Source of the DNA: Nemertoderma westbladi
Lineage: Eukaryota; Animalia; Xenacoelomorpha
Direction: 5' to 3'
DNA length: 42,750 nucleotides
Assembly (NCBI GenBank): GCA_032718475.1
Contig: JAUCBJ010003577.1
Coordinates: 1-42,750 of the forward strand
The notes beneath the pieces were generated by a model that saw only the letters and a list, made by a program, of their open reading frames with translations, made no database searches and was not told where the DNA came from. Shown here in pieces: positions 5,198 to 33,779 of the stretch. Every line of letters starts with the position of its first letter. The first letter of the stretch is position 1. The translations under genes and the position numbers were made by a program.

Positions 5198-6521
5198 ATG
5201 GGTGGTACCTACGGTGCGCACTACAACGGCAGTACAGCAATACGGTGTACCGTGCCAATGCAGCAATGACTGAATGATTAGCGGTAACTATCTAAACTAT
5301 TATATTATTATTACCTGGTGCCGGTACCGGTACTGGGCTAATTAGGCCTAAACTTTAATCACCGCAAGGGTTGCCGGGGTTAATTAGATTACATGATATG
5401 GCATGTCTGCAGTGTATGGTACCGGCTGACCAGTATTGCAGTATTGACTGATTCTCAATTCATTCGCAGGATTCTCGATTCAGGGATTGAGTACAGCCTG
5501 ACAGTACCGGTACACATGGTACATGCAGACAACCCCAATGTATTGCAAAATTTGTCAGAAAACCCAGCTGATTTATCCTACAGTAATAATAATTTAACGC
5601 ATTTTAAATTTGGATAAATAAATTTATTATAACTGCAATAACAGTTACACTGATGCTGCACGAAGACCCCACGCAAATTCTACTTGGAAAATTTTCAAAC
5701 TTTTGCCAAACAACATGTGTACCAAGTTTGGATAGATTTCATCAAGGATTGGCCGAGTTATTAACGTTTAAAATAAAATACTGAAAAAAAACGCGACAGA
5801 ACGACAGGTTGATTAATGGTACCACTACGCTAAGGCTCACTCACTTCGTGGCTCGCCCCACAGGTTGATTAATGGTACCCCTACGCTAAGGCTCACTCAC
5901 TTCGTGGCTCGCCCCACATATTTATAACATAATTTTTGTCACTTTTACACTTATTTATACAGCAACTAATTTAATTTGTCCAGTTTCTATCACTTATAAT
6001 ATATATACAATCATTTCGTAATGTTAAAATTTTCGAATAAATCTACATACATAGTACTTGTTGCAAAGTACTTTACAGTGTTCTGATCCTCGTGTCTTTA
6101 TTTTCACTCACTCACTCACTCACTAACTTTCGTTCGTGTAACAAAGCCACTCGGATCATCACACTGTAAAGTGCTACTTTACACACAAGTACTGTATATA
6201 AATAGTTATTACGATTTTTAATGAGAACCGAGTCACGAAAGTAAACTAAAAAGGTAAAGTTATCTTTGTACATTATTTCAGGGAAAACGCACAAAGAATC
6301 ATTTATTTCCAGTGCGATTCCCCCAGAACTACTGTATTCTGCCTAGAAGAAACTTACTCTTTTAGCGATCGTTTAAGGATGCAAGGCGCATAGATGAATC
6401 CGGGTTAACTTGAACCCACGGTAGCCAGATATGTTAATTATAGGTAATGGGCTAAACGACAAGGATGTGACAGAGAAATTTTTCCCAACATAAATAATTA
6501 TATTAAAATAAATAAACAAAC

Positions 6522-6590
6522 CTTCCCTTTCATCCCATTCCCTCTACGACTCCTTGACCTGCTTCTATTCCCTTTCTTCTTCGCAGCCAT
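6522..6590 (-). CDS. Exon 1 of protamine-like/BAF fusion gene, copy 1 (MAAKKKGNRSRSRSRRGNGMKGK); BAF exon predicted just outside the window
   Basis: ATG at 6590, 23 codons, then the donor AAG|GTTTGT. Identical to 24377-24445. Window position 1 corresponds to 22978, which is 30 bp intron-side of the copy-2 acceptor. Confidence 0.8.
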
Positions 6591-6704
6591 TTCGTTCCAA
6601 CACGGATACAGTAGGCCTACTTGTTATTATTATCTATCCTATTTAATTTAAATTGTGTTACAAATTTAATAGAGCGATTCGTGTATGACAACTTTTTTCA
6701 ATGT

Positions 6705-6825
6705 TTGTTATTTATATATGAAGACTAAATTCTAGAATTAGTTAACCCACCGATTAAATTATATTATAGGTGGTTGATTGGATGTAATAAACTAACGGCG
6801 TATTAATTCTGTTAACGGTATTCAG
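6705..6825 (-). promoter_or_regulatory. Putative promoter of BAF-fusion copy 1 (TATA, CCAAT, MYB-like sites)
   Basis: Minus-strand TATATAAA at ~6711-6718, CCAAT at ~6777-6781, TAACGG at 6793 and CTGTTAACGG at 6809-6818. Same block at ~24565-24675. Confidence 0.5.
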
Positions 6826-7129
6826 AATCCACCCCCCCCCCCCCCCCCCCCCCCGCCTAACATGTCCAGAAATTACATTGTACTCATTCTATTGTCATAA
6901 TTTGGAACAAGTCTCCACAAGCACCCACAACCTACGTAGGTATGGGAGGCCCATTAAATTATTATACTGTACCTACAAATCGTAATCGCATGAAATTTTG
7001 ATAACAAATAGTGGGGTCCTAATATTTATTAGCATGGTAATACTTATTTATATTAGCTTAAACAGGGTGTTATATATATATATTCACGAAATAGGCGAAG
7101 CCTTAGCATTGGGGTAGGCCTAACACTAA

Positions 7130-7657
7130 GGCCCCCCTCACACGGAGCAATTGTTTCTGCAACTTGTTTCTGAAACATGTATCTGAAACTTGTTTCTGAA
7201 ACTTGTTGCTGGACCCCCTCACACACAGAAACTTGTTTCTAAAACTTGTTTCCGAAACTTGTTTCTGTGTGTGAGGAGTCCAGCAACAAGTTTCTGCAAC
7301 TTGTTTCCGAAACTTATTTCTGTGTGTGAGGGGGCCCAGCAACAAGTTGCTGGAAGTTATATTCCCAGCAACTTTTTTAAAAACCTTTTATACATCCAAT
7401 TTTTAGATTAGAGCTAATATTCGATAAATTGAGTGATTTGATATTATATATAAATCACTGGAAATGTTAGCTATTTGTTTTGAAATAATTGTTATTTTCT
7501 TGAGCAACAAGTTTCTGTGTGTGAGTGGGTCCAGCAACAAGTTGCTGAAGCAAGTTTCTGAAACAAGTTGCAGAAACAAGTTGCAGCAACTTGTTTCTGT
7601 GTGTGAGGGGGTCCAGCAACAAGTTGCAGAAACAAGTTGCTCCGTGTGAGGGGGGCC
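7130..7657. mobile_element. MITE (PIF/Harbinger-like or TA-target) with long internally repetitive inverted arms
   Basis: TAA|GGCCCCCCTCACACGGAGCAA ... TTGCTCCGTGTGAGGGGGGCC|TTA. Arms are built of AACTTGTTTCTG / CAGAAACAAGTT motifs. Confidence 0.85.
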
Positions 7658-7699
7658 TTAAATAGGTACTTGTTTGTTCCTAGTGTTCCTAGTGTATTC

Positions 7700-7925: not shown

Positions 7926-8195
7926 TTTTGGCGGGAACGGCGACCAACACATACAATGAAAAAAAAGAGTTTCGGTATAATTGTTAGTTAAAGCTGATTT
8001 CTGAGGTGTTTGTGACTGTTGTTAGGGAGTAAGTGTGATGAGTGTTATTTTTCGCCAACTACTGTTGGTGAAGAAATTTGTTAAAAAGATACGTTTGTGT
8101 AAGGCCGTGGACAGTTTTGTAAAACGAGATTAGACAAAATAATGGCATCCGGTCTTGAGGAGAGGGGCTGTAGGTTGCATTCCTTTTTTTTTATA

Positions 8196-8368
8196 GATTT
8201 TATATAGGTAATTTAAAAAATATAGGGTTTCAAATAATACTTCTGCACAATTTATTAATTAATATGTTTATTGTAAATCGTCTAAATTACTGCCACAGTT
8301 GGCCGGTATCGTAAACTGTTCGATATTATAGCTTTTTGAAGAACATTTTGTCTGTAAGAACTTTATCT
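8196..8368 (-). pseudogene. Orphan duplicate of the 3' UTR/poly(A) region of the protamine-like gene
   Basis: Near-identical to 10457-10629, including the minus-strand AATAAA. No coding exon is attached. Confidence 0.8.
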
Positions 8369-8457
8369 TTCATTAACTTATATATTAACTTATACCACTT
8401 ATATACCACTTATACATTAACTTATATATGAACTTATATATTATTCATATATATATA

Positions 8458-10310
8458 CAGGGTGTCCCATAAAATTTGTTACTACTTTGAATTTATATAA
8501 CTCCCACGTATGTTGGATAAAATATAAGTTTTTTATAACAATTTAAAGCCAATATTGTAACTTAGATTTTGGTCTGTGTTTGGAAACTCAACGTTGTCAT
8601 GGAAACAAAATACAGCCAAGTGAATTCAAAAGCCAGAGTTTATACATTCGTAAGTGAAGCTTCGAGGCCGTTTAAATAGGTAATGCGCTATTTGGACGAT
8701 ACATGGTAATGAACATTGCTTGTTTGTTATGAAAGGATAAAATTCGAGGAACGGTGGTCATAAAGTGTATTATTTTTGGTTATTTATTTTATTACAATTT
8801 ATTTTGTGCCAATATTCAACATACTAATCTGACAAACAAATAAAGTATACAATCAATGCAATACTGTATGTATGCATACACACTCTAGCATTAAATAATA
8901 AATAATGCCTGTGACGATATAATAAACCTGGAATAATTATAATGTACTTGTAATGTAATTGAATCTAAGAGTTAGATTGATTAGACACTAGAAGTTTAAT
9001 GCTATTATTGTACCGGTATCTATTTGTAAATTTCTATGTGGCCACCTCCTATTTCCTTCACTTTTTCTAGTCTACTCATCATTTCTGCAAAGGATCTCTG
9101 AAGATGGGCTTTCGGTATTCCGTTGAAGGCTTCAGTAATAGCAGGACGAAGTTGGGCCAAGGATTCAATCGGTTGGCTATAAACTAAGTTCTTAATGTGG
9201 CCCCATAAATAGAAGTCCATCTCTGCCAATCCAATGTCCGTTAAAATGACAGTCCAAGTAATTCCTAACGATAAGCCCCCAGTGTGGCGGTGCACCATCT
9301 TGCTGGAACACAATATCGCTATGATGGATTCCTAACCGAGGAACAAAAAAATGAAGATATCAAATTTAAATAACTGGCACTTGTAACAGTTGGTGTATCA
9401 AAAAAGTATGGACCAATTAATAGTGTGCGAGACATGGCTTCCCATACAGTGACCTTTGGTGAGTCGCGAGATTTTTCAGCGATTGAGTGTGGGTTTTCCT
9501 TTCCCCAAATCCGAGAATTCCATCTATTTACTTGTCCATTGACATGAAAGGTAGACTCATCACTAAAGAATACCTTGGATAAGTCCTTAGATTCTAGAAA
9601 GTTCAATATCTGGGCCGCATTATTGACACGTCTGGTGTAGTCGTTTTGTTGAATTGCATGTAGGAGCTGAATTTTGTAAGATTTAAATTTGAGTTTCTTA
9701 ATAACTTTTTGAATACTGCTTCGACTGTAGCTTAATGATAGTGATGCCCGCCTCAGTGATGTCTTGGGATTCTGGATAAAATGGGCCTCAATGATTTCTC
9801 TTGAAACACGAATGCGTCTTCCTGACCCCTTTTTTCTGGTGAAACCGAATTCGGATGAAAGTTTTTTTACGAATCTTAAAATTTCAGCGTTTTTAGGAAG
9901 ACGCTGATTTGGAAATTTGTGTCCAAATGTACTAGCTGTTAGTTTGGGCGACTTAGTTTCAAAATACGTTTTTACAGTAAAAACTTTCTCTTCACCAGAG
10001 AACATGGTTCCAACTTAAAACACAAGAGTAAACCAAAATGGTAGCTAGTCTTATTTCCATAGCAACACTAACTTTCCCATAAAATAAATACCCACAAAAG
10101 CCTAGAACATGCACCTACGAATGTATAAAATCTGGCTTTTGAATTCAATTGGCTGTATTTTGTTTCCATGACAACGTTGTGATTCCAAACACAGACCAAA
10201 ATCTAAGTTAGAATATTGGCTTTAAATTGATATAAAAAACTTATATTTTATCCAACATACGTGGGAGTTATATAAATTCAAAGTAGTAACAAATTTTATG
10301 GGACACCCTG
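8458..10310 (-). mobile_element. Tc1/mariner-superfamily DNA transposon, full length but decayed
   Basis: TA|CAGGGTGTCCC ... GGGACACCCTG|TA, with ~195-bp TIRs (8458-~8652, ~10117-10310). Confidence 0.95.
9020..10005 (-). pseudogene. Frameshifted Tc1/mariner (DD..D-type) transposase
   Basis: VFFSDESTF, FQQDGAPPH (alternative frame near 9290-9315) and DFYLWGHIK motifs. The WPxxSPDL segment before the last Asp is missing and the frame is broken. Confidence 0.9.
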
Positions 10311-10652
10311 TATATTATCATATATATTATGTTAGTCCTTGGTAAGTATGTTATTGTGTAGACCTATTATAACTCTCTTATATTAGTTAGCTAGTGTTTT
10401 TTTTCATTATTGTTTTACCAGGCAGCTAGTGATTTCTAATAGTACAAATAGCTATCGATTTTATATAGGTAATTTAAAAAATATAGGGTTTCAAATAATA
10501 TTGCTCCACAATTTATTAATTAATCTGTTTATTGTAAATCGTCTAAATTACTGCCACAGTTGGCCGGTATCGTAAACTGTTCGATATTAAAGCTTTTTGA
10601 AGAACATTTTGTCTGTAAGAACTTTATCTCTCGGCATTTTCTTTCCTTTTCA

Positions 10653-11043
10653 TCATTTCTTCGATTTTCCCCGTCCTTTCTTCCCCTGTAAATATCAATT
10701 CATATACTGTTACAATCACGTAATTAGGAATATGTACTGTATAGGCCTATAGTAGACCTAAACCCACATTATATCCTATATTATATTTAGTCAAACAAAC
10801 CTTCCCTTTCTTTCCCTTTCCTCTACGACTTCTAGACCTGCTTCCTTTACCTCGGCGACTCCTAGACCTGCTCTTCTTTCCCTTCTTACTTCCCTTTCGT
10901 TTTTTACGTCTCCTTTTCTCCATTTCGTTCCGGCTGGTGGAACGATTACCTCTCTTTGATAGGCTCCTACTTTTCCTTTCATCTAAGGCCCAACTCGGCA
11001 AACTATCCAGCCCTAAATCGCTATCTTCAGGTTGAACAGGCAT
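10653..11043 (-). CDS. Two-exon protamine-like basic protein, 91 aa, with acidic 22-aa leader; join(complement 10801-11043, 10653-10685)
   Basis: Phase-0 GT-AG intron at 10686-10800 (AAG|GTTTGT ... TTTACAG|GGG). Exon 2 encodes GKKGRGKSKK-TGA. Residues 43-91 are only K/R/S/G (31/49 K+R) with SRSRSRR repeats. AATAAA lies ~120 nt after the stop. Confidence 0.8.
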
Positions 11044-12207: not shown

Positions 12208-13925
12208 TTAAAGAATGCTGTGGCGGCTTATCGACAAAATTGCACCCCGCCACAACTCCCTATCACCCACGACATTTGCTAGATCATCCGCATCTTCAAG
12301 GCCAGTGTCCTTTAAGATGCGTCTCAAGAAAGTCATGGGCTGTCCACCATGCTTATTCACTCCACGAGGCTGCCAAAGTACAAGATTATGCACTGGTTGG
12401 TCCTCACGGCGAAAGCAATGTCCTGCAAAGCGGAGGCGATTTTGTTCTAGTGTCAAGCTTGGGGGAACCAATGAGACACCTCCAATGTTATATAGTGTCT
12501 GGTTGGAGATGTGTGCATTGTACTTGACACAATGAACCCGGCGTAGCATTCTTGTGAATGTGCCATCCAGAGATTTGGTGTCCTCAGCAGTTAGAGCCCA
12601 GCATGGACTCCCATAGAGGAGTACTTGAACTACTGCTGCTCTAAATAATCGGTCCTTAAGTTTCCGATTAATTCTCGGTGACTTCCAAATCCTGGAAAGC
12701 CTATTCAAGGCTGCCCATGCCTTTCCCTTACGTATTCGAAGGTCCTCACCTGACTTCCGGATCCATGATTCCAGGTAACAGAAGTCATCCACGTGCTCAA
12801 GCATACCATCTTTTGAGCTTATGCTCATCCGATCAGAGACTTGCTGAGGACTTTCAAAGTTAACTGTCAAAATTTTGGTCATTCTGGAGTTAATAAAAAG
12901 ACCAACACTAGAAGCAGCATGTTCTAATGAGCTGAGGAGCCGTTGGGCTCCCTCTAGTGATTCTGAGAGTACTCCTAAGTCATCAGCAAAGTCTAGATCA
13001 GTTAGGTACTTGGCAGGATTTCCACGACTTCTGGAGCCAGTAGGTGGAGTTATCATCACCCCATCATTATTATGATGATCTAAGGACATGCGTAGAACAT
13101 AGTCAACAACAATTATGAACAAGAATGGTGCAAGTGTGTCTCCCTGGAGGACGCCTCATAACACTTCAAATGGTTCTGTGTCACCGTCAACAGTAGACAC
13201 AAATGTTGTCGAACCATCGTATACTGATCTAATTGCTGCAATAATTTCATCAGGAATCCCATATAATGAAAGTATGCTGAACTTACGTGAGCGAGAGACT
13301 GAATCAAAGGCCTTGAAGAAGTCAACAAAGATAACAGCCAGATGCCTGTCTTATTTCCACGGAGCAGTCTCTCAATGGGATCCCTGATGCGATTTAATAG
13401 AATTCTATTGTATAGCTTTGCAGCAATCAAGATCAATGAGATTCCCCGAAAAGAACCATAGAGTGTTAGGTTGCCCTTCTTGGGAACTGGCACCAACTTA
13501 TTTGTTTTCATTTCTTGTGGGACTCTTGTTGTTCGGTACATGTCTACTATGATGGGATATATTAGCTTTAAACACTCAGGTATTTTAAAGACCTCAGGGG
13601 GAATCCCATCTACTACACTGGCACGATTGGTCTTAATGCTCTTTGCAGCAGCCTTCACTTCTGCAAAGGAGATATCACCAATGGGAATATCTGGGAGTAC
13701 AGACTCAGACACTTTTACTTCTATAAAGTTATCAGGCAATACCCTGTCATTATTGAGGAGCTTTTCAAAGTGGGCCTTCCAACCATTGAAGCGATCGGCT
13801 GGTGATTCAGCCTTAACCTTGGTGGTTGGTTGGCTTTTTCGACCAGCAAGCAAGTTGATCGATCTCCATGCCTGGGATAATTGCCTGTTGTCATCAGCAT
13901 CAGTGATGGCATCAACCTGTTGGTT
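12208..13925 (-). pseudogene. RTE ORF, RT and C-terminal part (frameshifted)
   Basis: PVPKKG, FRGISL, LDFADDL, VLLYGS and RLRFAGHCFR motifs across ORFs 13113-13853 and 12208-13122. Confidence 0.9.
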
Positions 13926-14119
13926 TATTTAATTTAATTGATATTCGTACATATGAATAAACGATAGACATACAGTAGTACACGGTACGTAGACATATTA
14001 TTAGTAAAGTAGCACAATATTAATGACGTAGGCCTATGTAATGAATAACTGACAGAACACGTAGTAAATGACACGGCATCGAACAAATAATGATAGGCAA
14101 TAATATAAAGAATATTTAA

Positions 14120-17100
14120 CTAACATGTAGTAATATAATTAAGGATATCAGTAATCTCATCAACATTAAAACCAGGTATATCAATATTGCTACAACGACA
14201 ATTAATTAATTCCCTACACAATTCTAATTTCCATCTATCAGCTACATCAAAAGGAACGTAGTTCAACTTATTAACGTGCGTAACATTGATCGAGTTAATG
14301 AGAGGTATTTTACACAGATTTGCGATAGAACGTAAATTGCACCCACTTCGCGATCGACAATCATATAAAAATAATTTTGCTAAATAACGAATGCTTGATT
14401 TTTCAGACTGCACTAAACTGGTACAAAATCTTATAAAACGTGAATATAACATAATACTGGGGTGTTTAAACTGCATTAAATTTTCTACAATATATCTATG
14501 TGATGTAAAAGGCAATCTAAAAATAATCCTAATATTAATATTCCATGAACTGTATATACGAGTACACGATGCAGAAAAAAGATCCCATAAATTACTACCG
14601 TAGAAGGATGTGCAATAAATACGCTGAATATTACTCAAAACATACGGATCAGAAAAATAGAATTCTTGTCGAAGTGCATTGAGCTTTCCTATAAATTTTC
14701 CCCGTTTTCGTATAATATCAGACTCCATTGTGTTCTGGAAATCTAACATGTTTCCTAGATGCAACGCCTCCCTGACCCAAGGAAGTGGTCTCCCGTTCAG
14801 CATTACTGACGCTGTGGGTTTAAACCACACTCTCCCAAAAGGAATGCACTTGGATTTGGATTTATCCGGATTCGGGTTTGTACTAAACACGAGATGGTTT
14901 TCGGTTGCGAACTCCTCGCATAACTTGACCATAAACCGTAGTCCCACTATGGAAGGGCATAAAAGGAGAAGATCATCTGCGTAGCCGAAAATACCAAAAT
15001 AAAAAGAACCAATATAACAGCCAACTTTAGATGACCTCAGTTTTGATATTAATTTATCCAATATAATACAGAACAGAATCGGAGATGCCACTGAACCTTG
15101 ACGAACTCCGTTCGTTAACGTAAATGACTCGGAATGGAAGCTGTTCCAGCGGACGCAACATGTTTGATTACTATAGATCCATAGCAGGGTTCGTAAGAAA
15201 AAAGGAGAAAACCCCTTCTTAATAAGTTCCAGAAATAGCTTGCACCATTCAACCATATCGAAGGCTTTCGATAGATCGAGAAGACATCCAAATACAGGAG
15301 TTGCGTTTCTAGAATAGAAACCGAGAACCTCTGTAGCCACCCAGGTACATTGGGACGTACTGGAACCACGTTGGAACCCGAATTGCAACTCATCCAAATG
15401 TAAGCACTCAGCCTGCGAGATCAGCATGACCCACTCAAACAACTTAATCAGAAGGGAGGATAAGGCAATAGCCCTGTAATTACTGGAAAGGGAATCGTCA
15501 CCTAATTTATCTTTTATCAAAGGAATAATGACACACGTCAGTAAGAACTGTGGAACAAAGCCGTGAATGAGAAAACTGTTGAACAAATCACTTAAATGTG
15601 AACATAATTCTGGAGGACCATTGATCAGGCAATCAGAATCAAAATCAAAAGTTACGTCTGTTTTAGAGCTTTTTAGCCTATGTAGACCTTCACTGACCAA
15701 ATCCGGAGTGATATGCGGGAAATCAGCTGAATCACATCCTTCGAGTTTATCGGTAATCTGCGATCTAACGAACTCTAAATCGGAATCATACGGTTGATTA
15801 TATAGATCCGAATATATACTGGCGAATCGGTCGGCTATCGATTGTGGGTCTGTACAACCATCAATGGTCGAAGTCACAGTGTTCGGTGTGGATCTAAGTT
15901 TCTTTATTTCTCTAAATATATCACTATTATTCCTTAAACACGCCTGTAGGAGTTTATCTCGACGCACATTATCTACTGAACGTTTGAGCCGTCGGACGGC
16001 ATACTTATACTGCGCGCGAGACACCCGTCGCATGTGAAAAAGCTGACTATTTTGTGAAGCATTTGGACACCCCGCCGAGACCCACAAGGAATGCCATAGG
16101 ATAGCTTCATCTCTAAATGGTTTAACTCGCTCCGACCAACCGGGAAGTTTAGGGCGATTAATAGTAGCACGGGGCTCACCATTATAATTATTATTTAAAC
16201 TACTACAGCTGATATCAATGCATTCAAGAATATCTAAAACATATTTTTCAATAAACAGTCTATGAGTAAGGTCCGCACAAAAAATATTACCACATGTTAT
16301 ACAACCTGACTCAACCTCAATGTCATCCAATTTATTATGTAGATTGTTTACAAAGTCATGTTGCTGTTCAATAGTAGCTCGCTTAAATTTAATTTTACCA
16401 TTACCAGTAGCATCACCTGAGCTATAATTAACACGTGGTAAATCTACACCACTAACTTTCAACTTCAAAAATATTGGGTCATGAAAAGATAAATTAGCAC
16501 CAGAATGTACTACACCAGAATCAGTAACATTTTCTACCAATTTACTCGAACTGAAAAAGTGATCTAAAATGTAATGAAAAGATGCCTGTTCTCTGTAGCA
16601 CGTGTAAGTATAATCAATAGGATTAAAATCCCATAGACGTTCTAATTTAAATTCCTGTAAAAATTGACTAATTACACGAACATGCATAGATACACGCGAA
16701 AAATCAGCATTGAAATCCCCTGCAAGTATAACATTACAAAGCTGCTCCGATAAAATAATATGTTTGATATCATTGGTAAGAGTAAGTAAATCGTCTGATA
16801 CATTAATATTGTCCCGCGTATCTACTGGACAATAACAATTAATTATCACAAAAGGGTTAACATTGGGCAATTCAACTCGTACAGCTTGCAATCGGGGATT
16901 CGTAACGTTAATTCTAGATATATATTTAGACAAAGATGGCCTATAAATAAAGCAGAGTCCGCCGCTAGGCCTACCTGCAGATACTTCATTTACTGTGCTA
17001 GACTGCGCAGGTTGTATTAAACATTTAAATGCAGGGAAAGCTGCTGTAAGCTTATAAGAATTATCACGCAATAAAAAGTGCTCTTGAATACAGACAATAT

Positions 17101-17173
17101 CGCTTCCAGCTAATAATACATTGATAAAGTCAAGTTTATCGGGTGACAAACCAGTACTGTTATATGACGTCAT
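14120..17173 (-). CDS. LINE ORF2: APE endonuclease + reverse transcriptase (1017 aa)
   Basis: YNSTGL, CIQEH, AGDFNAD, LDHFF and FHDPI (APE); LDLSKAFD, GVRQGSVASP and YADDL (RT). Confidence 0.95.
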   Translation of the reverse strand: MTSYNSTGLSPDKLDFINVLLAGSDIVCIQEHFLLRDNSYKLTAAFPAFKCLIQPAQSSTVNEVSAGRPSGGLCFIYRPSLSKYISRINVTNPRLQAVRVELPNVNPFVIINCYCPVDTRDNINVSDDLLTLTNDIKHIILSEQLCNVILAGDFNADFSRVSMHVRVISQFLQEFKLERLWDFNPIDYTYTCYREQASFHYILDHFFSSSKLVENVTDSGVVHSGANLSFHDPIFLKLKVSGVDLPRVNYSSGDATGNGKIKFKRATIEQQHDFVNNLHNKLDDIEVESGCITCGNIFCADLTHRLFIEKYVLDILECIDISCSSLNNNYNGEPRATINRPKLPGWSERVKPFRDEAILWHSLWVSAGCPNASQNSQLFHMRRVSRAQYKYAVRRLKRSVDNVRRDKLLQACLRNNSDIFREIKKLRSTPNTVTSTIDGCTDPQSIADRFASIYSDLYNQPYDSDLEFVRSQITDKLEGCDSADFPHITPDLVSEGLHRLKSSKTDVTFDFDSDCLINGPPELCSHLSDLFNSFLIHGFVPQFLLTCVIIPLIKDKLGDDSLSSNYRAIALSSLLIKLFEWVMLISQAECLHLDELQFGFQRGSSTSQCTWVATEVLGFYSRNATPVFGCLLDLSKAFDMVEWCKLFLELIKKGFSPFFLRTLLWIYSNQTCCVRWNSFHSESFTLTNGVRQGSVASPILFCIILDKLISKLRSSKVGCYIGSFYFGIFGYADDLLLLCPSIVGLRFMVKLCEEFATENHLVFSTNPNPDKSKSKCIPFGRVWFKPTASVMLNGRPLPWVREALHLGNMLDFQNTMESDIIRKRGKFIGKLNALRQEFYFSDPYVLSNIQRIYCTSFYGSNLWDLFSASCTRIYSSWNINIRIIFRLPFTSHRYIVENLMQFKHPSIMLYSRFIRFCTSLVQSEKSSIRYLAKLFLYDCRSRSGCNLRSIANLCKIPLINSINVTHVNKLNYVPFDVADRWKLELCRELINCRCSNIDIPGFNVDEITDILNYITTC

Positions 17174-17252
17174 ACAAAATGCACCATTGTGTAGTAAATG
17201 TGAAGTATCCTTTGTATAAAATATTTAAAAGAAAAATATATACCAAACTTTA

Positions 17253-18983
17253 CTAGTTACTGGAATTCGCGCTAGGAACCTGTGTATTATCTCGACCCCT
17301 GGGACCAACAATAGGAACCCGAGTATTATCTGAACCTCCAGAACCTGCATTCTCTGCATATGGAACCTGAGTATTATCTGGCCCACCGGAACCTGCATTA
17401 GGAACCCGAGTATTATCTGGCCCGCCGGAACCTGCGTATGGAACCCTAGTATTATCTGGACCGCTGTATCCTGTATATCTATTATCTGGACCTCCGTATC
17501 CTGCATATCTATTATCTGGACCGCCGTATCCCGCATATCTAGCTGTATTATCTGGACCGCCGTATCCTGCATTAGGAACCCGACTATTATCTCGACCGCC
17601 GTATCCTGCTTTAGGAACCCGATTCTTATCTTGACTGCCGTAACCTGGTGTAAAGCGGCTGTAACGCCACTCGCGAACACAAACCCCGGATGGCCACGTC
17701 TCTGGATCGAGCACTTTCTTTAAATCAACCCGTTGAACAGCAATCTTAAAACCATTCGACGTCGACCACGATTCGTCGCGAGATGTCTTTTCTATATCTG
17801 TTTCTTTGATCGTAATCCCCATCTCAGCCAGATCCGCCACCATATCCGCCGGAGTTACCGAGATGTGAACGCGAAACACATATATATGTGCTGGTGCCGC
17901 ACGAGTCTTTCGAGCGGTTCCCCCAGATGAACTAGCGGATCCTCCGCCCGTACCAATTACATGCTGCCGCTGCCGCCTCGGCTTCCGTTCGAAGAGGTTA
18001 TAACCCTCATCATCTATTCGACGCCTCGGAGTTGGTATCTCTTGGACATCCTGTTGGTTATCGACTTGTCCACCACCATCCCCAGTAGACGCCTGCCGGG
18101 GGCGCTTAGCGCTTCCTTGACCTTGGCCACTGTAGCGCCCATCCAATACTGTGTACATATTTCTGGTCTTTACGGCCGGGGACGGAGGATGACGGAATTG
18201 ATAACGCCCTGGTGGGGCCGGAGAATATAACCTCTGCGCGAGCACTTTCGGACGAGTATCCTGTGACTCCCGTCCACGGATAACTGGACTACCCACTTGG
18301 TTAGGGGCTGACGACGCTTTGCTTATAGCCTCCCGATACGGGAAATAAATTGCTGGTCTGTTGTTTTGATCAATGCTACTTACCGGTAACGGTGGGAATT
18401 CCCGCCCTACCGATGGCGGATCTCCGAACCGAACCGGTATTTGTGACTCTGTCGATTTAGTCGACATCACAAGATTCTCCAATGATTGCATTCTCTCGAC
18501 TAAATCTTTCTGCAATGACCGTAAACCCTGGTCAAATTTCTCCTCAAGACGTGACTGCTTAACTTGTAACCCCGTTTCTGACTGGATAATCAAGTTCGGT
18601 AGAGACAACGCTTCCAATGCCTCAACTGCTATTACAGGCATGCTTCCATTCATATCCATTGCTCTTATTACTTTATCAAACATATCACTTACATTCGCCT
18701 TTGCCGCAGTGCGTCCCGCAGAATCCCGCCTCTCGATTGGATCAAATCCACAACAATTAAACAGTTTGTCTTTCGCAAGAAGAATATCCGAGGGAGTGTA
18801 CCGAGTTAAACACGATTCCTGTACCGTTGCAGAACAGCTAGAGGATAAGCCTTGGACTAGCAAAGCTAAACACCCATTCACGATGGTGATACCCGATCTG
18901 TCCTCTGGAACAACATCCATGGCCCCCGACTGCGGCTGAGAGGCCAACAAGGAGCGCCTCCCTGCCGAATCAGGACCACTCAT
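17253..18983 (-). CDS. LINE ORF1 with coiled coil, RRM-like region and C-terminal Gly/Tyr repeats
   Basis: First ATG at 18983, directly upstream of ORF2. IYVFRV...FKIAV...WPSGVCVREW block, followed by (GYGGPDNTRVPNA)-like repeats. Confidence 0.85.
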   Translation of the reverse strand: MSGPDSAGRRSLLASQPQSGAMDVVPEDRSGITIVNGCLALLVQGLSSSCSATVQESCLTRYTPSDILLAKDKLFNCCGFDPIERRDSAGRTAAKANVSDMFDKVIRAMDMNGSMPVIAVEALEALSLPNLIIQSETGLQVKQSRLEEKFDQGLRSLQKDLVERMQSLENLVMSTKSTESQIPVRFGDPPSVGREFPPLPVSSIDQNNRPAIYFPYREAISKASSAPNQVGSPVIRGRESQDTRPKVLAQRLYSPAPPGRYQFRHPPSPAVKTRNMYTVLDGRYSGQGQGSAKRPRQASTGDGGGQVDNQQDVQEIPTPRRRIDDEGYNLFERKPRRQRQHVIGTGGGSASSSGGTARKTRAAPAHIYVFRVHISVTPADMVADLAEMGITIKETDIEKTSRDESWSTSNGFKIAVQRVDLKKVLDPETWPSGVCVREWRYSRFTPGYGSQDKNRVPKAGYGGRDNSRVPNAGYGGPDNTARYAGYGGPDNRYAGYGGPDNRYTGYSGPDNTRVPYAGSGGPDNTRVPNAGSGGPDNTQVPYAENAGSGGSDNTRVPIVGPRGRDNTQVPSANSSN

Positions 18984-19099
18984 CCTTTGCACAGTAGGCT
19001 AACACTTTGGCAGTCAGATTGTCAGTCAGTCAGTTCAGTCATTAGCAGTTACACTAACATTAGTTACATTAGCTCTTGTAAATTAACAGAGTACTGACT

Positions 19100-20563
19100 G
19101 TTCAGGGACCTAGATGCAGCCTTAACTGCATTCTTGGCCTCTGTAGTCTGTTTGAGTCGGGACTCTTTCTGCGCCTTGTAGAGGTCATTTCGGCACTTCT
19201 GAATTTTGTTGTCAGTCCGGGGGGCCCGTTTCCTGTTTCGAGGGTATACAGGAACTGTTTCTACAGCTGCTAACTTAACTGCCTCTGTGAAGGCAGTATA
19301 GCCCTCACAGTGATCTGCCGCCTCAGAGGCAAGTACCTCATACCTGTTGCTCAGCTGTACTGTGAAGCTGGATCACACACTTGGCTGTTGCAACAGAGAG
19401 GACCAGTCATGCCGCGGCAAGGCAGATTTCGTTGTTCTGCTAGCACGCAGACTAATCTTACCTTGGCCACAATAAGGCGGTGATCACTGGAGAAGGGTCG
19501 TAGTGTAAATGCATTACAGTCTTGTATAGAGCTCCTGTATTTCCTACGAAACAGGATATGGTCTATCTGGGACTTGTGACCACTGGGTCCACTATGAGTC
19601 CATAGCTTTCCAGTTCGCTTCTTGAACTGGGTTCCAGCCAAAAACAATCCATTTCCAGAGATAAAATTCTAAAGATGGACGGAATTTCGGTTAACACTAT
19701 TGTATAGACCCAGGGCGATGTAGGTGATTGATGCAGACTTGCATTAAAGTCTCCCAGGAATGTTAAGAATGCATGCTGATCCACTCCATCAGTAGCTGCT
19801 GTAGATTCTGGTAGAAATGTTCCACCTCCTCTACAGGGGCAACACTAGTTGGAGAGTAGCACACAATCAGAACCACCTTAGGAAACTTCTTAGCCAGTCT
19901 TCCAGACCATGAGAAGTGGCAACGGATGATGCGGTTAGAGATTTGGTCTATTTTGTCCAATGCTGCATGTGCAGTTGGATTCATCAATAGACCAATTCCA
20001 CCATTGCCACTATCATCTGCTGAAGCGAGGGCGAGTCGCCCACCGCCCCCCATGTCCTTAATCAGAACTTCATCAGTCTGTCCAGTCTGCATTCGGTGCT
20101 CTTGAACACCCACTGCACTAAGAGAAAGCTTATCTGCCAAGGCAGTCAGCTCACCTTGTTGCATTGGGGACCCGAGTGTTAGGGTGTTTACTGAGGCTAG
20201 TCTAGTGACTTGCCTCAGATTCACCAATGGCTTTGTTGGTCGGGGTGGAACATGAGAGTAGCCTCCAACTCCAGAATCCCTTTCCCCCTCACAATCTGGC
20301 CTCCCTGGTGACCCAGGGTTTGGGCCAGAAAGGTCATCAGGAAAGGGACTCAAAGAATTGTTTGCCGCTCTCTCTCCAGTAGGGGGTGAGACAGGCAGCC
20401 GGTCAGGAGATAACTGATGCCTGTGAGACCGATTGTGTCCAGTCATTCCACTGGCCTCTAGTGGCTGGACCTCCGCATTACAAATGTAATCCATAGTGGG
20501 GGTTGGGGGGTGCTTTTTTACTGAGTCAGCTCTCGGGGCAAATACCACACCCTGGTTTGCCAT
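19100..20563 (-). pseudogene. RTE ORF, N-terminal APE endonuclease part (frameshifted)
   Basis: LASVNTLTL, VGVQEHR, GGIGLL, VCYSPT, LGDFNA, SQIDHIL and SSDHRL motifs in three frames. Confidence 0.9.
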
Positions 20564-21333
20564 TCCACAGGGTGGGTGTCGCAGTGGAGTCAGATATGAG
20601 GCCCATCACCCATATCTACTCTCGCGCACATGACCCACCATTGGCTGTGCAGCTCCTCTGCTGGGTCATGTCCTGTACCCCTGATGCCAGGTGCAGGTCG
20701 CAGTGAAGTGCACTCAGAGTGGACATGAGAACACTCTACTCCTGACCAGCCATTGGTTGATCACCATCTGCCTGGCCAGGCCATATACCCCTGCAGCCAA
20801 GTATATGGGTCCTTAATCCCGAACCAAGGGCGTCCTTATCCCAGAACGAAGGGGGTCCTAGTTACAGGACCAGATTTGCCCTAGTAAGAGAGTCTATGCA
20901 GCTACAGGTGGCACCTCCTTTATGCTGCATGGAGTTGGCAAGTTTTCTTGATCAATGACCTAGAATACCTGACCTGACCTGATGCCGGTCGATTGTAAGT
21001 CGATGGGGTCATCGACGGTGAGTGGAACTAGTTGTCATCAGAAAATGACACTATATTACGGGACATGGTGTATATATTAGAGCAGAATTATCATTATTAA
21101 GTATTTGCTTTTATTTTTAATTGATAGTAACAATGTGTTGGCAAGCTGTATTTTTCGAGAATTCTGTATTTTTAAACATAAATGAATGATTAGGGGTGGT
21201 TGGACCGTTAACAGTGTTGTAATTATTTTTTTGGAATTATTTGTGGGCGAGTTGTGGGAATTATTTATTCCGTTAACAGTATTGGAATTATTTGGGGGCG
21301 GTTATTCCGTTGACAGTATTACATTTCTGTTAA

Positions 21334-22611: not shown

Positions 22612-24445
22612 TTACGAGTAGTATGCTTCGCACATGATCGATATAGCTCTATGAGCTCGATGGGAATAGGCCTTGTAAAAGTGGTCCCCACAGATCTTAG
22701 AGAGCCACAGATGGAAATCTTCCAGCTTCTCTCTTAGTAGAATGTACTTCGCTAAGACCTGGTAGGCTCGTGTGAATCCATTATTGGCGAGACTACCTCC
22801 GAATACTTCTCCTATTCCAGGGATGTACTTTACACTCCGATTTCCCAACTCTCGAGCCAGAATCCGTCGATGTTTCTTCGTCTTCAGGATCTTCCCTATT
22901 TTCTTTCCGTTTCCACCTCTTCTCGCGATTCCTCGACTTTCCTTACCCTGAAAGAATTGTATTGAGCATTTTGTAAAATGATTTTATTCCAAAATTGTAA
23001 CATTACTCAACGCCGCTAGTATTAACAGCGAGTTGTTATTAGCACTTTACAACTTTAAAGGACATTACAGCATTGTATTGGCCTGTATAATTAGTATTGT
23101 AGTGGGTGTTGTAATGTCCCTTGTTTATGTGGTAACCAATGACGGCGAGCTGTAAAGTTACGGCGTCATTGGTTACCACGTAAACAATAGGTGGTATTTG
23201 CCTGACAGCCAGATAGGCCTACTGCATTACCTACCGATAGGCGGGGTATAGCTATTAATAAACAGTAGGGCTTAGCTTATTATTATAACAAGGCTCCAAA
23301 CGCCACCATAAATATAAGCTAACTTATTTATATATGTCATTTTTACATTTATTTATACAGCAACTAATATAACTTGTGCATTTTCTACTACTTATAATAT
23401 ATATACAATCATGTCGTAATGTTACAATTTTGTAATAAAACTACATACAAACTTGTCTTTTTGCAAAGTCATTTGTTCCAAAATTGTAACATTACTCAAC
23501 GCCGTTAGTATTAACAGCGAGTTGTTATTTAGCAATTTACAACTTTTGAGGAAATTACAGCATTCTATTGGCCTGTACATTTAGTATTGTATTTGGTGTT
23601 ATCCGTTAAGTAATGTCCCCTTAGTGGACATTGCTTAACGCCGTCATTGGTTACTACGTAAATAATAGGTAGAAATTTGCCTGACAGCCAGATAGGCCTA
23701 CTGCATTACCTACAGGTAGGCGGGGTATATCTATTAATAACCAGTTGGCCTAGCTATATTATTATAACATGACTCCACACGCCACCATAAATATAAGCTA
23801 ACATATTTATAACATAATTTATGTCACTTTTACATTTATTTATACAGCAAATAATTTAATTTGTCCAGTTTCTATCACTTATAATATATATACAATCATT
23901 TCGTAATGTTAAAATTTTGGAATAAAACTTCATACATACTTGTTGCAAAGTACTTTACAGTGTTCTGATCCTCGTGGCTTTATTTTCACTCACTCACTCA
24001 CTAACGTTCGTTCGTGTAACAAAGCCACTCGGATCATCACACTGTAAAGTGCTACTTTACACACAAGTACTGTATGTAAATAGTTATTACGATTTTTAAT
24101 GAGAACCGAGTCACGAAAGTAAACTAAAAAAGTAAAGTTATCTTTGTACATTATTTCAGGGAAAACGCACAAAGAATCAATTATTTCCCTTGCGATTCCC
24201 CCAGAACTACTGTATTCTGCCTAGAAGAAACTTACTCTTTTAGCGATCGTTTAAGGATGCAAGGCGCATAGATGAAACCGGGTTAACTTGAACCCAATTA
24301 TGGGCTAAACGACAAGGATGTGACAGAGAAATATATCCCAACATAGATTATATTGTATTAAAATAAATAAACAAACCTTCCCTTTCATCCCATTCCCTCT
24401 ACGACTCCTTGACCTGCTTCTATTCCCTTTCTTCTTCGCAGCCAT
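22612..24445 (-). CDS. Two-exon protamine-like-tail/BAF-domain fusion protein, 134 aa; join(complement 24377-24445, 22612-22947)
   Basis: Exon 1 MAAKKKGNRSRSRSRRGNGMKGK ends AAG|GTTTGT. Acceptor TTCTTTCAG|GGT at 22948, phase 0. Exon 2 reads GKESRGIARRGGNGKKIGKILKTKKHRRILARELGNRSVKYIPGIGEVFGGSLANNGFTRAYQVLAKYILLREKLEDFHLWLSKICG...MCEAYYS. It aligns ungapped to BAF hallmarks KHR, GIGEV (HhH), GF.xAY.VL and F..WL...CG. Confidence 0.88.
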
Positions 24446-24764
24446 TTCGTTCCAACACGGATACAGTAGGCCTACCTGTTATTATTATCTATCCTATTTA
24501 ATTTAAATTGTGTTACAAATTTAATAGAGCGATTCGTGTATGACAACTTTTTTCAATGTTTGTTATTTATATATGAAGACTAAATTCTAGAATTAGTTAA
24601 CCCACCGATTAAATTATATTATAGGTGGTTGATTGGATGTAATAAACTAACGGCGTATTAATTCTGTTAACGGTATTCAGAATCCCCCCCCCCCCCCCCC
24701 CCTGCCTAACATGTCCAGAAATTACATTGTACTCATTCTATTGTCTTAATTTGGAACAAGTCTC
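22978..24764. repeat. Segmental duplicate (copy 2) of 1-6912, without the TE insertions
   Basis: Direct sequence match. Homology ends at GAACAAGTCTC, where the BEL/Pao element starts. Confidence 0.95.
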
Positions 24765-28150: not shown

Positions 28151-28277
28151 ATTATATATATCACGCTACACTGAGTAGCAGTATCGGTAATTAATTACTA
28201 GGCTAGCAGTTAACTCTGAATTACTAGACTTGCTTAAACTGTAATATAGCAGTAGGCATTCAACTGTGCAAACCAAC

Positions 28278-31200
28278 ATGTCTGATACTAAACAGAACCT
28301 GTCAGACAGTTTATTAGATGTAACTATCTGCGACTCAGACAGAGGTGTAGAACCGTCTAGTCCTAAGTTCAGTTCACCTCCCACTGTGAGGAAGGTCATC
28401 CCTCCTGTAGTAATAACAGAACCTAGGCTGGTCCAACATCGTAGGTCTATCATAGGCACTCGAGCTCAGGTCAAGCGGGACCAAGAAGCAGCGGAACAGC
28501 AACAACCCGCGAGCCAAGAACTTATTTCTCAGCGGCCCAACAGCTCCAGTAGTGAAGATACGGTAGAACTGATACCCGAACGCGGAGCAAGGATGACGGA
28601 TGAGGCTTATTCAGATCCCCTTCTCATCCTTCCTGCAGCCGTACTCACTAGGTTATTGATCGCTGTGGAAGAACACCAGATCGATTGGGCGAGAAGCCAG
28701 CGTTCAACTAGAGATAGTTATGCTGGATACACAAGGGAAGAACTGAAGTCCACGGTCGAGTCGCAATGGAACTTCCCCGGACCCGGACTCCCGTTTGATT
28801 TATCAGAAGCTGCCTGGGAAGACATACACCGGATGGGAGTAGCCAAGGAAACCATCGATCCAGCTGTGTGGAAGAGGTCCGCAGCCGGATACGCACAGGG
28901 ATTCTTCAGCTCTATGGAGAGAGTAGAAAAACAACTGTTACAACAACCTCAAGGACCTCAAGAGCAGGGAAAGCTGCTTTATCAAGTTAGAGAAAGAATT
29001 CTGCGAATTAGGCTAATATTATCAGCCTTTGAAGAGGCTTCTAAAAGAAGACAAGACACGTCGTTGCAAGTTGCCGTAAAGACTTGGTTTCAACGGGTGA
29101 GTCGCCAAGTTCAAGGAACAGCTCAGTGGAAAGCTCAGCTGGAGGAGCGCTCAACCCATGGAGAATCAACAGACGCTACTTATTCCCAAGTGGAAAGTGA
29201 AGCGACGGCAGAGAAACCGCATAAGAGGGATGCCATTGACATCTATCTGTCAGACTATCAACGTTTTTTAGGTGATGACGAGTTGAGGAGAAGGTTAGAG
29301 GGACTTAGCCCTAATAGTGAAGGAACCAAGCTTGTGTTGGATGCCATCGATGTGGAAATGAGAGCTGCGAATCAGGCTAAATTCGATGAACAACTCCGCA
29401 TCGCTAGAGACCAAGAGGAAAGGGTTAAGAAAAAACGTATAGAAGACAGAAAGGCAGCGGCAGTAGCAGCAGCAGTGGCATCGGCAGAAGCGGAAAGAAA
29501 GGCGGCAGCGGCAGAGGCAGAAGCGGGAAGAAAGGCGGCAGCGGCAGAGGCCGAAGCGGAAAGAAAGGCGGCAGCGGCAGAGGCCGAAGCGGAAAGAAAG
29601 GCGGCAGCGGCAGAGGCCGAAGTGGAAAGAAAAGTGGCAGAGGCAGTAGCAGAAGCAGAACGGAGAGCGACTGAAGAAATCACCCAGTTAGAATTGGAAA
29701 ACATTCAGGAGAATCAAGACTGCATAAATAAACAGTTAACAGCTAGCAATATGCAGATGATGAATCGATCTACTCCCAAAAGACAGGGATATACATCATC
29801 TGAGGAAGGCGATACCACCGATACTGAAGGCAAAGGAAATAGATCTCGTCTAAGCAGACGTAAAAGAACATTCCACCGTCAGAAATTGCCTGATTTGCCT
29901 CCAGCTGTTAGAAGGCAACTAAATAACACCAACTTAGGTAGTACAGAGCCCACAGACCAAATAATTAAATTAGAAAGACTCCCTACTATAGTAGATGAGC
30001 CTGAAATAATTAGGCCTGTTTTTGAAATCACCCCTTCGGTGATAGACACACCTGTGCTCCCTGAAGCTACCTCTAAATTCCCTCTGCATAGCACTAAGCT
30101 ACCTGTGCCCAGTAGAACTGCCCAGGAGACAGTTCAAGTCCTGGACCCCGAGCGAAATATTCCTGATTTGTCGCCCGTTGTCCCTCGTCCGCCCGCTACA
30201 ACGTTGGCGACTCCCGCTTCGGCGGTCGAATGGGTGGACGAGAGACGGCGGGGGATGGATCTCCTGCTCGGGCAGATGCGGGAGACGGTTCAGCAATTCA
30301 AGGGCACAGTAAGGGAAAGTAGGCTAGAGTTGCAAGAAGTGCAGCAAAGTATCGCGCTAGAACGCGATAAATTAGTAAATACACAAAGGGGTATACCACC
30401 ACCCCCTGTAACAATGTGTCAACCTGTTAGGTCTGAAGTATCTCATGCGCAAGGTGTGGAGCCTACACGCATCTATACTGCTAGCGAAGTAGAAACTCCT
30501 ATAGTGAACCCTATTAAGGGTAATTATAGACCTGTTGATAATGACATTCCCTATAGACCTGATCATAATCCGAGAAATTTATATACCGATAACTCGATAT
30601 TAAATAACACGATGGCCCAAGAAAGTTTTACGCGTCAAATGGCTAGAACCGAAGCCCGGCAAGCAGTAAAGGTGGGAGAGATCGTCAAGTTCAATGGAGA
30701 TGAGATGAAATGGTTACCTTTTAATGAATATTACAAAGATAACATACAGAACTCTGTACTATCTAATGGAGAAAAACTTAGATACCTCATCGAGTGCTTG
30801 GAAGGATCTCCCAAGTTAATGGCGTTAAAGTTTATTGGACATCCAGACGGATTAAGACAAGTTTGGGATACACTAAACATCAGGTATGGTAATAGGAATA
30901 ACATCGCTGGGTATTTGTATGCAAAGTTAGTAGCGCCCCGAAAGTTTATTAGCAGCGGGATTATCGAGTTTTCCGATGAAATCCAGGAGATCTGCAGACA
31001 ATTAGATTGGCTAGGTAAGTCTCATGAGTATCAGAACACTATGGTTATTAGAGCAGTGGCTTGTACTTTACCGAAAGGTGGAGTAGGTACACGCTGGGAT
31101 AAGAAAGTGTTATATATGATGGAACAACAACGACGAGACCCTACCATGGCTGATCTCATGTTATTCCTAGATGGAGAAGTGAAATTACAGCTCCTGAAAC

Positions 31201-32561: not shown

Positions 32562-33779
32562 GGGTGCCTGGAACAGGCGGCGGCGGACTCGTGAGGGTCT
32601 GGGGGCACACTAAATTGACGCTATAGTGCAAGGGAGTTACTGAAGGCCCTCGTGTCTTGCGAACCATGAATCAACATGGTGCCGTGGTACCGTCTAGTCG
32701 GCCTGTTGCCGTACTGCCAGTCCTGTACACAGTAGGGGTGGTGGCTTAGTGTGATCTGTGGTTTATGTGGTCTATGTGGTAGGTCTATGTTTGGTATGTA
32801 TGAGTTGACCAGACTCTTTACTGTCTCCAATCGGTTGCCAAAACGTGTCTTTTCCGAGGGTAGCACTATTGGAATGGAGGTGTTGCATCGGAATGGACAG
32901 GTTCCTGATGATTCTGTTGGTACTACTATTGGAATGGAGGTGGCACCCGGAATATCGGCTGCAAGGAGGGGTTGGTGTTGTAGTGTGGTCCGAGTGAATG
33001 ATACTCTGGAATCTGTGGTTTGTGTGTGTACGTGGTATACGTGAGTGTATGTATGGCCACTGCGAGTGAGTATGGGAACCCTTGCCGGTTGGTCCAGACA
33101 CCGCTGGTATTAGTAGGACCATATCTTTACTGCGCCCCAGCATACTTAGTGCACACAAAGTTATTTTGCCCTGACGGCAAAATAAGGTACTCTCTACTCT
33201 TTTAACAGTCGATACAATTTTGTCCCCTCTGATTTTGTCCCCGATTTTGTCTTTCCCGATTATGTCCTCTGTGTGTGCATGGTATGTGTCAGATTTTGTG
33301 TTTACCGTAGTGTACTTGATATTGTGAACATCTGTTGAGTACACGTGTACAGTGACTGGTAAGTGGTTACTTGTTCCTAGCTTTCGAGCTAGTCAGTATT
33401 GTTTGTGGAACTGACTTCCCCTCAATACTGCCGGCGAGGCGGGTGAAAACGGTCAATATTCCATGTTGGGTAGCACAAGCCCACTTGGGACAAGACCGTC
33501 GGTTTGGCTCAAGGGCGACCTTGATGCTCGATCGCTATCGACTGGTCCACCCGCCGGTTGACTCTCTGAGTTGGCTCAATGTACAGTCAGGCCACAGCAA
33601 GTTGACAGTAGCCGACCATCTGGCTACACCGACGAGTTGTGCCGTTGTGATCGGGGGATTGAAAAGTGAACCCGGGAAGCATCGGGCTACCCTCCGGCCC
33701 GGTCTGATAAAAACATCAGTCGGACTGGCCCCAAGGGTGGTGGGACAGCGTCCGCCTCATGGGTGCGCCTCGGAGTCAT

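Follow-up and report, generated by a model that had tools for sequence, protein, structure and literature searches.

Among the proteins known to pack sperm DNA, protamine-like (PL) proteins are described as descending from histone H1, and the remaining kinds are histone variants and HMG-box proteins (PMC13148410). The PL proteins of molluscs, tunicates and wasps are H1-derived and combine a globular DNA-binding domain with a 30–50-residue stretch rich in arginine and lysine, which can be a separable peptide (PMC13148410). Precursor protamines, such as those of squid and human P2, are short, have a pI of about 12 and show an N-terminal pre-piece and arginine clusters (PMC12216123), N-terminal cleavage of the precursor being common in protamines (PMC12216123; PMC13251019). 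Packers outside the H1 lineage include the HMG-box SNBPs of Drosophila (PMC13148410), as well as the SPKK-tailed H2B of hydrozoans and sea urchins and the plant H2B.8 (PMC13148410; PMC9903204; PMC9668745). As regards BAF, residues 6, 25, 27 and 46 are critical for DNA binding and the K54E change abolishes emerin binding by the human protein (PMC2173821), while P14, Q48 and L58 are contact sites for lamin or the LEM domain (PMC6212729). A relative, BAF-L (BANF2), acts in the histone-to-protamine exchange of mouse male germ cells (PMC8877947).

The window analysed here is a 42,750-nt stretch of Nemertoderma westbladi DNA (contig JAUCBJ010003577.1). It carries on its minus strand, amid transposon remains, the genes A and B and a further copy, C. 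These are read as one two-exon family built on a common basic module of Ser, Arg, Lys and Gly, transcribed and encoding sperm-type DNA packers, in which the tail-only gene A would derive from a tailed BAF by replacement of the BAF part; a probability of about 0.5 is given to this reading as a whole. The sperm role taken by itself is regarded as highly probable, on the grounds of composition, architecture, diversity of copies and abundance of transcripts.

Gene A (11043–10650) encodes a lysine- and arginine-rich protein of 91 residues in two exons, with CCAAT motifs at 11228 and 11200 and a TATATAA at 11165–11159 as putative promoter. Exon 1, of 81 codons (11043–10801), begins with a near-neutral pre-piece of 40 residues (11043–10924; 7 Asp/Glu, 7 Lys/Arg, pI 6.2) and continues from Met41 (10923) with a basic part composed of Lys, Arg, Ser and Gly (10923–10801), where a 30-nt duplication at 10815–10881 has produced two SRSRSRR units. 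A 115-nt GT..AG intron in phase 0 (10800–10686), placed by splice comparison and by a gap in the cover of run X2, leads to exon 2, whose first 17 codons (10685–10635) are colinear with the linker of B in an anchored alignment and include TGA TGA as codons 11–12 (10655–10650). The 3' part that follows (10634–10472) is unrelated to BAF and holds a TAA at 10589–10587 and then a 3' UTR with AATAAA motifs. Counted from Met41, the protein has 51 residues, 18 of them Lys, 13 Arg, 8 Ser and 10 Gly (61% K+R), and with a computed pI of 12.0 gene A lies within the size and pI range of protamines (50–110 residues, pI about 12). The pre-piece is likely to be a cleaved pro-region. Contig ends of paralogues, read by hand, keep the frame open, with an S-T-S equally spaced from the Met and with synonymous codons. 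A Pfam scan of exon 1 returned no family at E<=1, and thus no winged-helix domain such as that of the H1-derived PL proteins; a word-based protein search with the pre-piece was without match and the Atlas search with A gave no usable match.

Gene B (24445–22612), the BAF fusion, encodes 134 residues. Its exon 1 (24445–24377), taken from the first in-frame ATG, which has in-frame stops upstream, contains 23 codons for a basic SR tail, with a CCAAT at 24636 and a TATATAA at 24573 further upstream, and is followed by a phase-0 intron of 1429 nt (24376–22948) whose splicing is seen in X2 contigs. Exon 2 (22947–22612) comprises a linker of 19 basic or Gly codons (22947–22891) and then the BAF domain of 92 residues plus stop (22890–22612), codon 20 (ATC) aligning with Met1 of human-type BAF; the 3' UTR extends to a poly(A) site marked by a poly-T contig end (22611–22464). 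With 40% K+R in its first 43 residues, B has the 30–50-residue Arg/Lys-rich stretch of PL proteins, as has A from Met41. An upstream coding exon joined through an AG at about 24476 was ruled out, since copy C has AA there. Exon 1 of copy C (6590–6522) encodes the same 23 residues as that of B, and its intron and promoter match those of B (5916–6915 against 23801–24764, 93.8% over 1002 nt; 1–691 against 22978–23666, 96.7%), exon 2 being expected just beyond the left edge of the window.

The surroundings of these genes are rich in mobile elements. MITE-like elements of about 490 nt, which have inverted ends of 25 nt and a hairpin inside, stand in tandem within the introns of B and C, two copies occupying 22982–23927 in the intron of B and others lying at 1–928 and 5937–6074. 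Downstream of A there is a Mariner/Tc1-like element (8432–10336) with 237-nt inverted ends that are 92% identical (8432–8668 and 10100–10336) and a transposase frame at 9319–10014, split into two frames, with the helix-turn-helix of Pfam DUF4817. Beyond this element, 8192–8371 is a direct 180-nt copy, 96% identical, of the 3' part of A (10453–10632), which starts no more than 3 nt from the end of the A/B homology, carries at the position matching 10630 the base of the sister copy of A described below, and could be a templated copy at a transposon edge or the relic of another tail gene. A non-LTR retrotransposon (14120–18998) has a 1034-aa open frame for endonuclease and reverse transcriptase (PF03372/PF14529, PF00078) and a further frame of 581 aa upstream, which matches no Pfam family and has a tail of GGPDN-type repeats; it is flanked by pieces of a second LINE-type element (12208–13928 and 19064–20605, with a reverse-transcriptase match in 12208–13155), into which it seems to have been inserted. 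A Bel/Pao LTR retrotransposon at 28245–37433 has three frames, with DUF1759, Peptidase_A17 and an integrase zinc domain, and an alanine-rich repeat in gag, and the window also holds a tandem array at 1336–2001 (unit about 67/134 nt) and a satellite in inverted blocks at 7100–7660.

A sequence-only reading of the window had claimed that the protamine-like gene A and the BAF fusion B are paralogues, and the resemblances on which it relied were all recovered. The context of Met41 in A is that of the start codon of the fusion, a 12-mer at 10920–10931 being identical to 24442–24453 and found again in copy C at 6587–6598, which makes three occurrences in all on the minus strand. The first exons end alike, that of A (to 10801) in SRSRSRRGKGKKGK and that of B (to 24377) in SRSRSRRGNGMKGK, and both are followed by an identical 8-nt donor in phase 0. 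When exon 2 of A is read from 10685 through its stops, GKKGRGKSKK, the two stops and KGKKM are obtained, colinear with GKESRGIARRGGNGKKI of B (from 22947), so that TGA TGA faces the GGT GGA (Gly-Gly) of the linker; an 11-mer is also common to both second exons at equal distance from the two acceptors. Compared with shuffled sequence, as that reading had proposed, the last 54 nt of exon 1, aligned from the donor and ungapped, agree at 43 of 54 positions, a value reached by none of 100,000 base and none of 100,000 codon shuffles, and the start of exon 2, aligned from the acceptor, agrees at 35 of 51, reached by none of 100,000 base and one of 100,000 codon shuffles.

Chance resemblance, or convergence, between purine-rich sequences that encode basic protein is the alternative on which these figures bear most directly. 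It could draw on the second exons, whose free local alignment is marginal (its score was reached by 71 of 2000 dinucleotide shuffles), and on the introns and promoters, which are not significantly similar: beyond the 8-nt donor the introns stay within chance (408 of 2000 shuffles for the 5' end, 1607 of 2000 for the 3' end), as do the promoters (234 of 2000) and the 5' UTRs (959 of 2000), and homology of intron, promoter and 5' UTR was dropped as evidence of paralogy because shuffles reach the same scores. Nevertheless, the anchored identities flank an intron of the same phase on both sides, five of the differences in the last 18 codons of exon 1 are synonymous, and sliding the exon-2 alignment by 1 to 9 bases lowers the identity to 11–24. 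Moreover, the acceptor of A is the best non-self match to B among the 5104 AG sites of the window (35, the next 26), and its donor is the best after copy C among the 5169 GT sites (43, the next 29), so that this explanation is refuted and retains almost no probability. The paralogy of A and B thus stands on the anchored identities, the common phase-0 intron and the ranking of sites. Beyond codon 17 of exon 2 the similarity is gone, with two codons left before the place of BAF Met1. No remnant of BAF was found 3' of A by tblastn or blastn, a resemblance of K-V-L-T-D-K to K-I-L-K-T-K being due to chance (shuffle p 0.41), and the untranslated leader of B has no significant similarity to the pre-piece of A (796 of 2000 shuffles).

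The origin of A was the point at which the sequence-only reading had to be corrected. It had offered truncation at TGA TGA as one origin of A: the Gly-Gly codons of a tailed BAF would have mutated to stops and the BAF part would have decayed thereafter. The alignment of the stops with GGT GGA, and a homology that runs five codons beyond them, do agree with such a route. A sister copy of A, however, present in runs X2, X3 and X4, has CGT GGA at codons 11–12, where the window has TGA TGA; of the three bases that differ, two are those of B (GGT GGA), which indicates that the open state is older than the stops, a reversion requiring three changes, two of them back to the bases of B. In X3 this copy is a single contig of 319 nt that crosses the intron from exon 1 and reaches 10512 (10512–10836, 12 differences and 6 gap letters). 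It keeps the same non-BAF 3' part as A, and its frame ends 16 codons past the common stretch (at 10589–10587), giving 113 aa in all; being open and yet without BAF, it implies that the BAF domain was absent before the stops arose. After codon 17, furthermore, the sequence is abruptly unlike BAF and not a decayed version of it. Nonsense truncation as the origin of A is therefore largely refuted and highly improbable. Replacement of the BAF part remains preferred, and the two stops would be a late trim that dates only the window's copy of A, the BAF domain having presumably been lost or gained at the junction near 10635/22897, which on the side of A (about 10635) lies five codons past the stops. 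The form with TGA TGA was not seen in runs X3 and X4, where codons 11–12 are covered by the sister copy and no other contig; of the summed depth that X2 has there, some two thirds lack the sister letters and may represent the stop form or another variant.

The BAF assignment of B is supported by several comparisons. Pfam PF02961 matches its domain with 64.1 bits (cut-off 25, E 1.7e-17), and the comparison with human BAF gives E 3.8e-11. The structure model of B, built on an alignment of BAF relatives, has a pLDDT of 88.9 and the five helices of the BAF fold (4–15, 26–35, 41–50, 55–66 and 72–90), and the top eight rows of a Foldseek search with it are human BAF, with TM values of 0.77–0.80 (0.79). 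Like BAF (BANF1), B keeps the DNA-binding residues K6, G25, G27 and L46 (numbered on the human-type sequence with which P0018 ends) and, on the LEM and lamin surfaces, A12, F39 and W62, with V51L and K53R as conservative changes. It differs from BAF in the near-invariant P14, G47, Q48, K54 and W84: B has P14E, G47A, Q48K, K54E, L58D and W84M, where 117 canonical BAFs have P in 117 of 117, G in 116 of 116, Q in 115 of 116, K in 115 of 117, L in 97 (M in 14) and W in 117 of 117. A two-residue alignment gap after residue 69 makes positions 75–88 of B less sure, and with this reserve P14E, Q48K, K54E, L58D and F88Y indicate, by comparison of sequences, that the surface for LEM and lamin is not preserved. 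B is further unlike BAF in its 42-residue SR/KR tail spread over two exons, in its several copies and in a net charge of +9, against -5 to +3 in the BAFs compared. By domain, predicted fold and DNA residues, B is thus a member of the BAF family without conservation of the envelope surface, and the pattern of residues and charge would suit a DNA-binding protein no longer tied to the nuclear envelope. The prediction of a homodimer scored 0.32, with 0.49 for one control, and G47 of the BAF interface is Ala in B.

Some positions of B vary among the runs: at 22661, X2, X3 and X5 have Arg where the window has His96 of exon 2, a residue that aligns with the DNA-binding R75 of human BAF, and at 22917 the first residue of the Gly-Gly pair is Ser in X2 and X5.

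The stretch of A is present in five of eight public runs, from three studies, which are listed as 'DNA?' with none recorded as RNA. Run X2 is taken as cDNA, since it shows cover limited to exons, ends at splice junctions and a poly-T end. On A it covers 10472–10702, beginning in the bin 10472–10504, and the exon-1 side up to 11113, with none at 10703–10768, and two contigs end at 10687 in the end of exon 1, as spliced sequence would. On exon 2 of B only the exon is covered, and 11 contigs end at 22949 in letters identical to the end of exon 1 (agreement 0.99). A poly-T end at 22464 is found in two X2 contigs, and a contig of X5 also ends there. The BAF fusion is therefore real, spliced and polyadenylated in the contigs, and A is spliced too. 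Of the 175,946 X2 contigs, 797 correspond to A and 694 to B, with summed word depths of up to 8e5 and 5e5, figures to be read as 'abundant' only, contig word depth being a poor measure of expression. An X5 contig ends at about 11129, 30–36 nt below the TATA box of A, in what we take to be a cDNA template-switch adapter; another spans exon 2 of B with 7 differences and no gaps, three of the five tabled coding differences in B being synonymous, and the lack of X5 cover on exon 2 of A is not informative on absence. Runs X3 and X4 extend through introns and flanks and behave as DNA. The contig depths of X3 (B 313–360, A 214–238, the second BAF gene B2 13) hint at many copies, depth not being equal to copy number. 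Run X6, from another organism, has 0 records on B, which does not imply absence of the gene.

The same runs reveal further members of the family, known from 30-letter ends and tables of differences. Two other tail genes, translated by hand from contig ends, have pre-pieces ending in S-T-S-G-R-D-M (X2, X3 and X5) and E-T-S-K-N-E-M (X5). The record of the latter aligns with 10800–10930 with 18 differences, continues as G-K-S-K-R-R-G-S-N-V and is not among the five X5 records on B, so that its 230 further letters hold no B-like BAF body at 80% identity. Met41 of A, which falls exactly at the position of the start codon of B, is kept in both. A further exon-2 start in X2, with an agreement of only 0.75, is not relied on. 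The second BAF gene, B2, was recognised at 22878, where X3 has an acceptor followed by E-R-I-T and then the K-K-H-R of B, and X5 contains the spliced form E-G-K-K-R-K / E-R-I-T. B2 thus has a basic end of exon 1 and a phase-0 intron exactly at BAF Met1, without the 19-codon linker, as known from 30 unaligned and 44–60 aligned letters. Its BAF body appears nearly identical to that of B, the X3 contigs merging at 22819–22848, so B2 could be a recombinant rather than an ancestor, and gene conversion or recombination blurs the history of the family. Two other departures from B were observed: at 22604 (X2, X3 and X5) a B-type copy is near identical as far as the stop codon, beyond which it carries another 3' UTR, and at 22825 one X2 contig follows B as far as Tyr41 of exon 2 and continues with 255 unrelated letters that open with an in-frame stop, being either a chimera or a BAF-truncated member.

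These members bear on the direction of change, for which the sequence-only reading had framed two possibilities, loss of BAF from a tailed BAF or capture of BAF by a protamine-like gene; that framing is upheld, and we lean somewhat towards loss. Loss is favoured because B2 joins a basic exon 1 to BAF Met1 without linker, as would an earlier stage, and because Met41 of A, at the start position of B, is conserved. Capture, with the same sperm role, would have an older protamine-like family, perhaps of H1 origin, take up BAF in exon 2 by retro-insertion or recombination to give B, with B2 arising through loss of the linker or a second exon swap. The position of the junction, almost at the edge of the domain, and the lack of an intron in the domain of B suit capture at least equally well: the homology stops two codons before BAF, where a capture must join, and codon 20 of B (ATC) stands at BAF Met1. 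The tail-only branch is diverse, with at least three types of pre-piece or exon 2, and the N-E-M context, coding in A and untranslated in B, looks like a relic. Capture must nevertheless account for the direct junction of a basic exon 1 with the BAF start in B2 and for the absence of significant similarity between the leader of B and the pre-piece of A. In addition, another tail paralogue is nearer to A (17–18 differences in 131 nt, no gaps) than B is (11 in 54 nt, with one SR unit fewer), so that the present data do not nest B beside A, and there is no winged-helix trace of H1, BAF being the only Pfam domain of B. Capture is considered less likely than loss, with a larger share than any of the other alternatives.

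Under loss from a tailed BAF, a BAF paralogue would first have acquired a basic first exon and then a linker at the start of exon 2; one branch would have gained the pre-piece and lost BAF at the junction two codons before the domain, and the window's copy of A would finally have acquired its two stops. At the protein level, B is predicted to bind DNA through its helix-hairpin-helix site and to bridge duplexes as BAF does, while its polycationic tail of 42 residues would neutralise DNA charge, and its anchoring of chromatin at the nuclear envelope would have been lost. The product of A would be a precursor: its first 40 residues, the pre-piece, would be removed by cleavage, or avoided by initiation at Met41, and the mature peptide of 51 residues (61% Lys+Arg) would act together with B in condensing spermatid chromatin, phosphorylation of the RS repeats possibly timing its deposition.

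A role outside sperm has also been considered, in which the family would compact chromatin in other terminal cells or in eggs, or sequester foreign DNA, with the tail-only peptides as cationic partners. The runs carry no tissue label, sequestering foreign DNA is a known BAF-type activity, and BAF is described as a general DNA-bridging protein (PMC2173821). The small size, the K/R/S/G composition, the RS repeats, the pre-piece, the divergent copies and the abundant transcripts match, on the other hand, what is described for SNBPs (PMC13148410; PMC12216123), and a role of this kind is improbable. The sperm role is retained, with one feature counting against it: A is richer in Lys than in Arg, unlike typical protamines.

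Set against the described systems, A resembles the precursor protamines of squid and human P2 in being short, in its pI of about 12, in its N-terminal pre-piece and in its R clusters, and differs from them in its mature composition (Arg 25%, Lys 35%) and in its kinship to a BAF gene; with 13 Arg and 18 Lys among 51 residues it does not have the arginine dominance (up to 80%) of P-type protamines. As PMC13148410 defines these classes, it is neither an H1-type PL protein, for want of a winged helix, nor an arginine-dominated protamine, yet it likely works like one. The family differs from the PL proteins in that its globular domain is BAF in place of a winged helix, its basic stretch stands at the N terminus and the separation is at the level of genes. 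With the non-H1 packers it shares the reuse of an ordinary chromatin protein for sperm packing, in the H2B case through an added basic N-terminal tail, and it is unlike them in its parent protein and in having a tail-only gene beside the tailed one. BAF-L, in turn, is described as a regulator that interacts with histones and protamines and not as a bulk packing protein, unlike the role proposed for B (PMC8877947), and a lizard BAF-L isoform (P0050) lacks the SR/KR tail of B.

As regards novelty, a HMMER scan of 1.84 billion representatives with B gave 127 matches, none of them close, and a profile search gave 1998, of which the best 120 were examined. The word-based protein search with exon 2 of B was without match, the Atlas search yielded ordinary BAF clusters only, and two metagenome scans gave no match. 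No basic tail like that of B was present among the 250 BAF relatives scored, of 251: an N-terminal extension of at least 15 residues occurs in 64 of the 250, the most basic with 33% K+R in 30 residues against 47% for B, and the top twelve extended relatives have at most one RS/SR dipeptide each against seven in B. B is identical to any of the 251 proteins compared at no more than 33 of 92 residues, and to 51 aligned relatives at 21–35%. No orthologues of the family were found. Ten of the proteins compared, from fish, insects and nematodes (P0001–P0006, P0010, P0012–P0014), have at least two BAF-matching stretches per chain and are either tandem-BAF proteins or mis-joined gene models. In the literature searched, with the subscription journals that hold older work on invertebrate sperm proteins mostly outside it, nothing was found that links BAF with protamine-like proteins or SNBPs or describes a BAF-derived sperm protein; a published protein sequence of the mature peptide of A may exist. 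Chromatin proteins given a basic tail for the packing of sperm DNA are already known in the cases of H1 and H2B; BAF as the parent is new within what was searched.

Protamines usually evolve too fast to be traced. Here a single species has retained codon-level homology, a common intron and several intermediates, so that the direction of change becomes traceable. We propose, tentatively and at slightly less than even odds, that sperm DNA in this animal is packed by BAF-based proteins, from which a protamine-like peptide has evolved independently of H1, with every step of the series alive and transcribed in one genome: a BAF whose first exon is basic, a BAF carrying both tail and linker, a precursor consisting of the tail only and a tail trimmed by stops. 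If this is true, BAF would be a further, previously unlisted parent of sperm packers, and the route from a globular DNA binder with a basic tail to the tail alone would have recurred from another starting protein. Even under capture, a protamine-tailed BAF without envelope contacts would be a natural experiment on DNA bridging by BAF.
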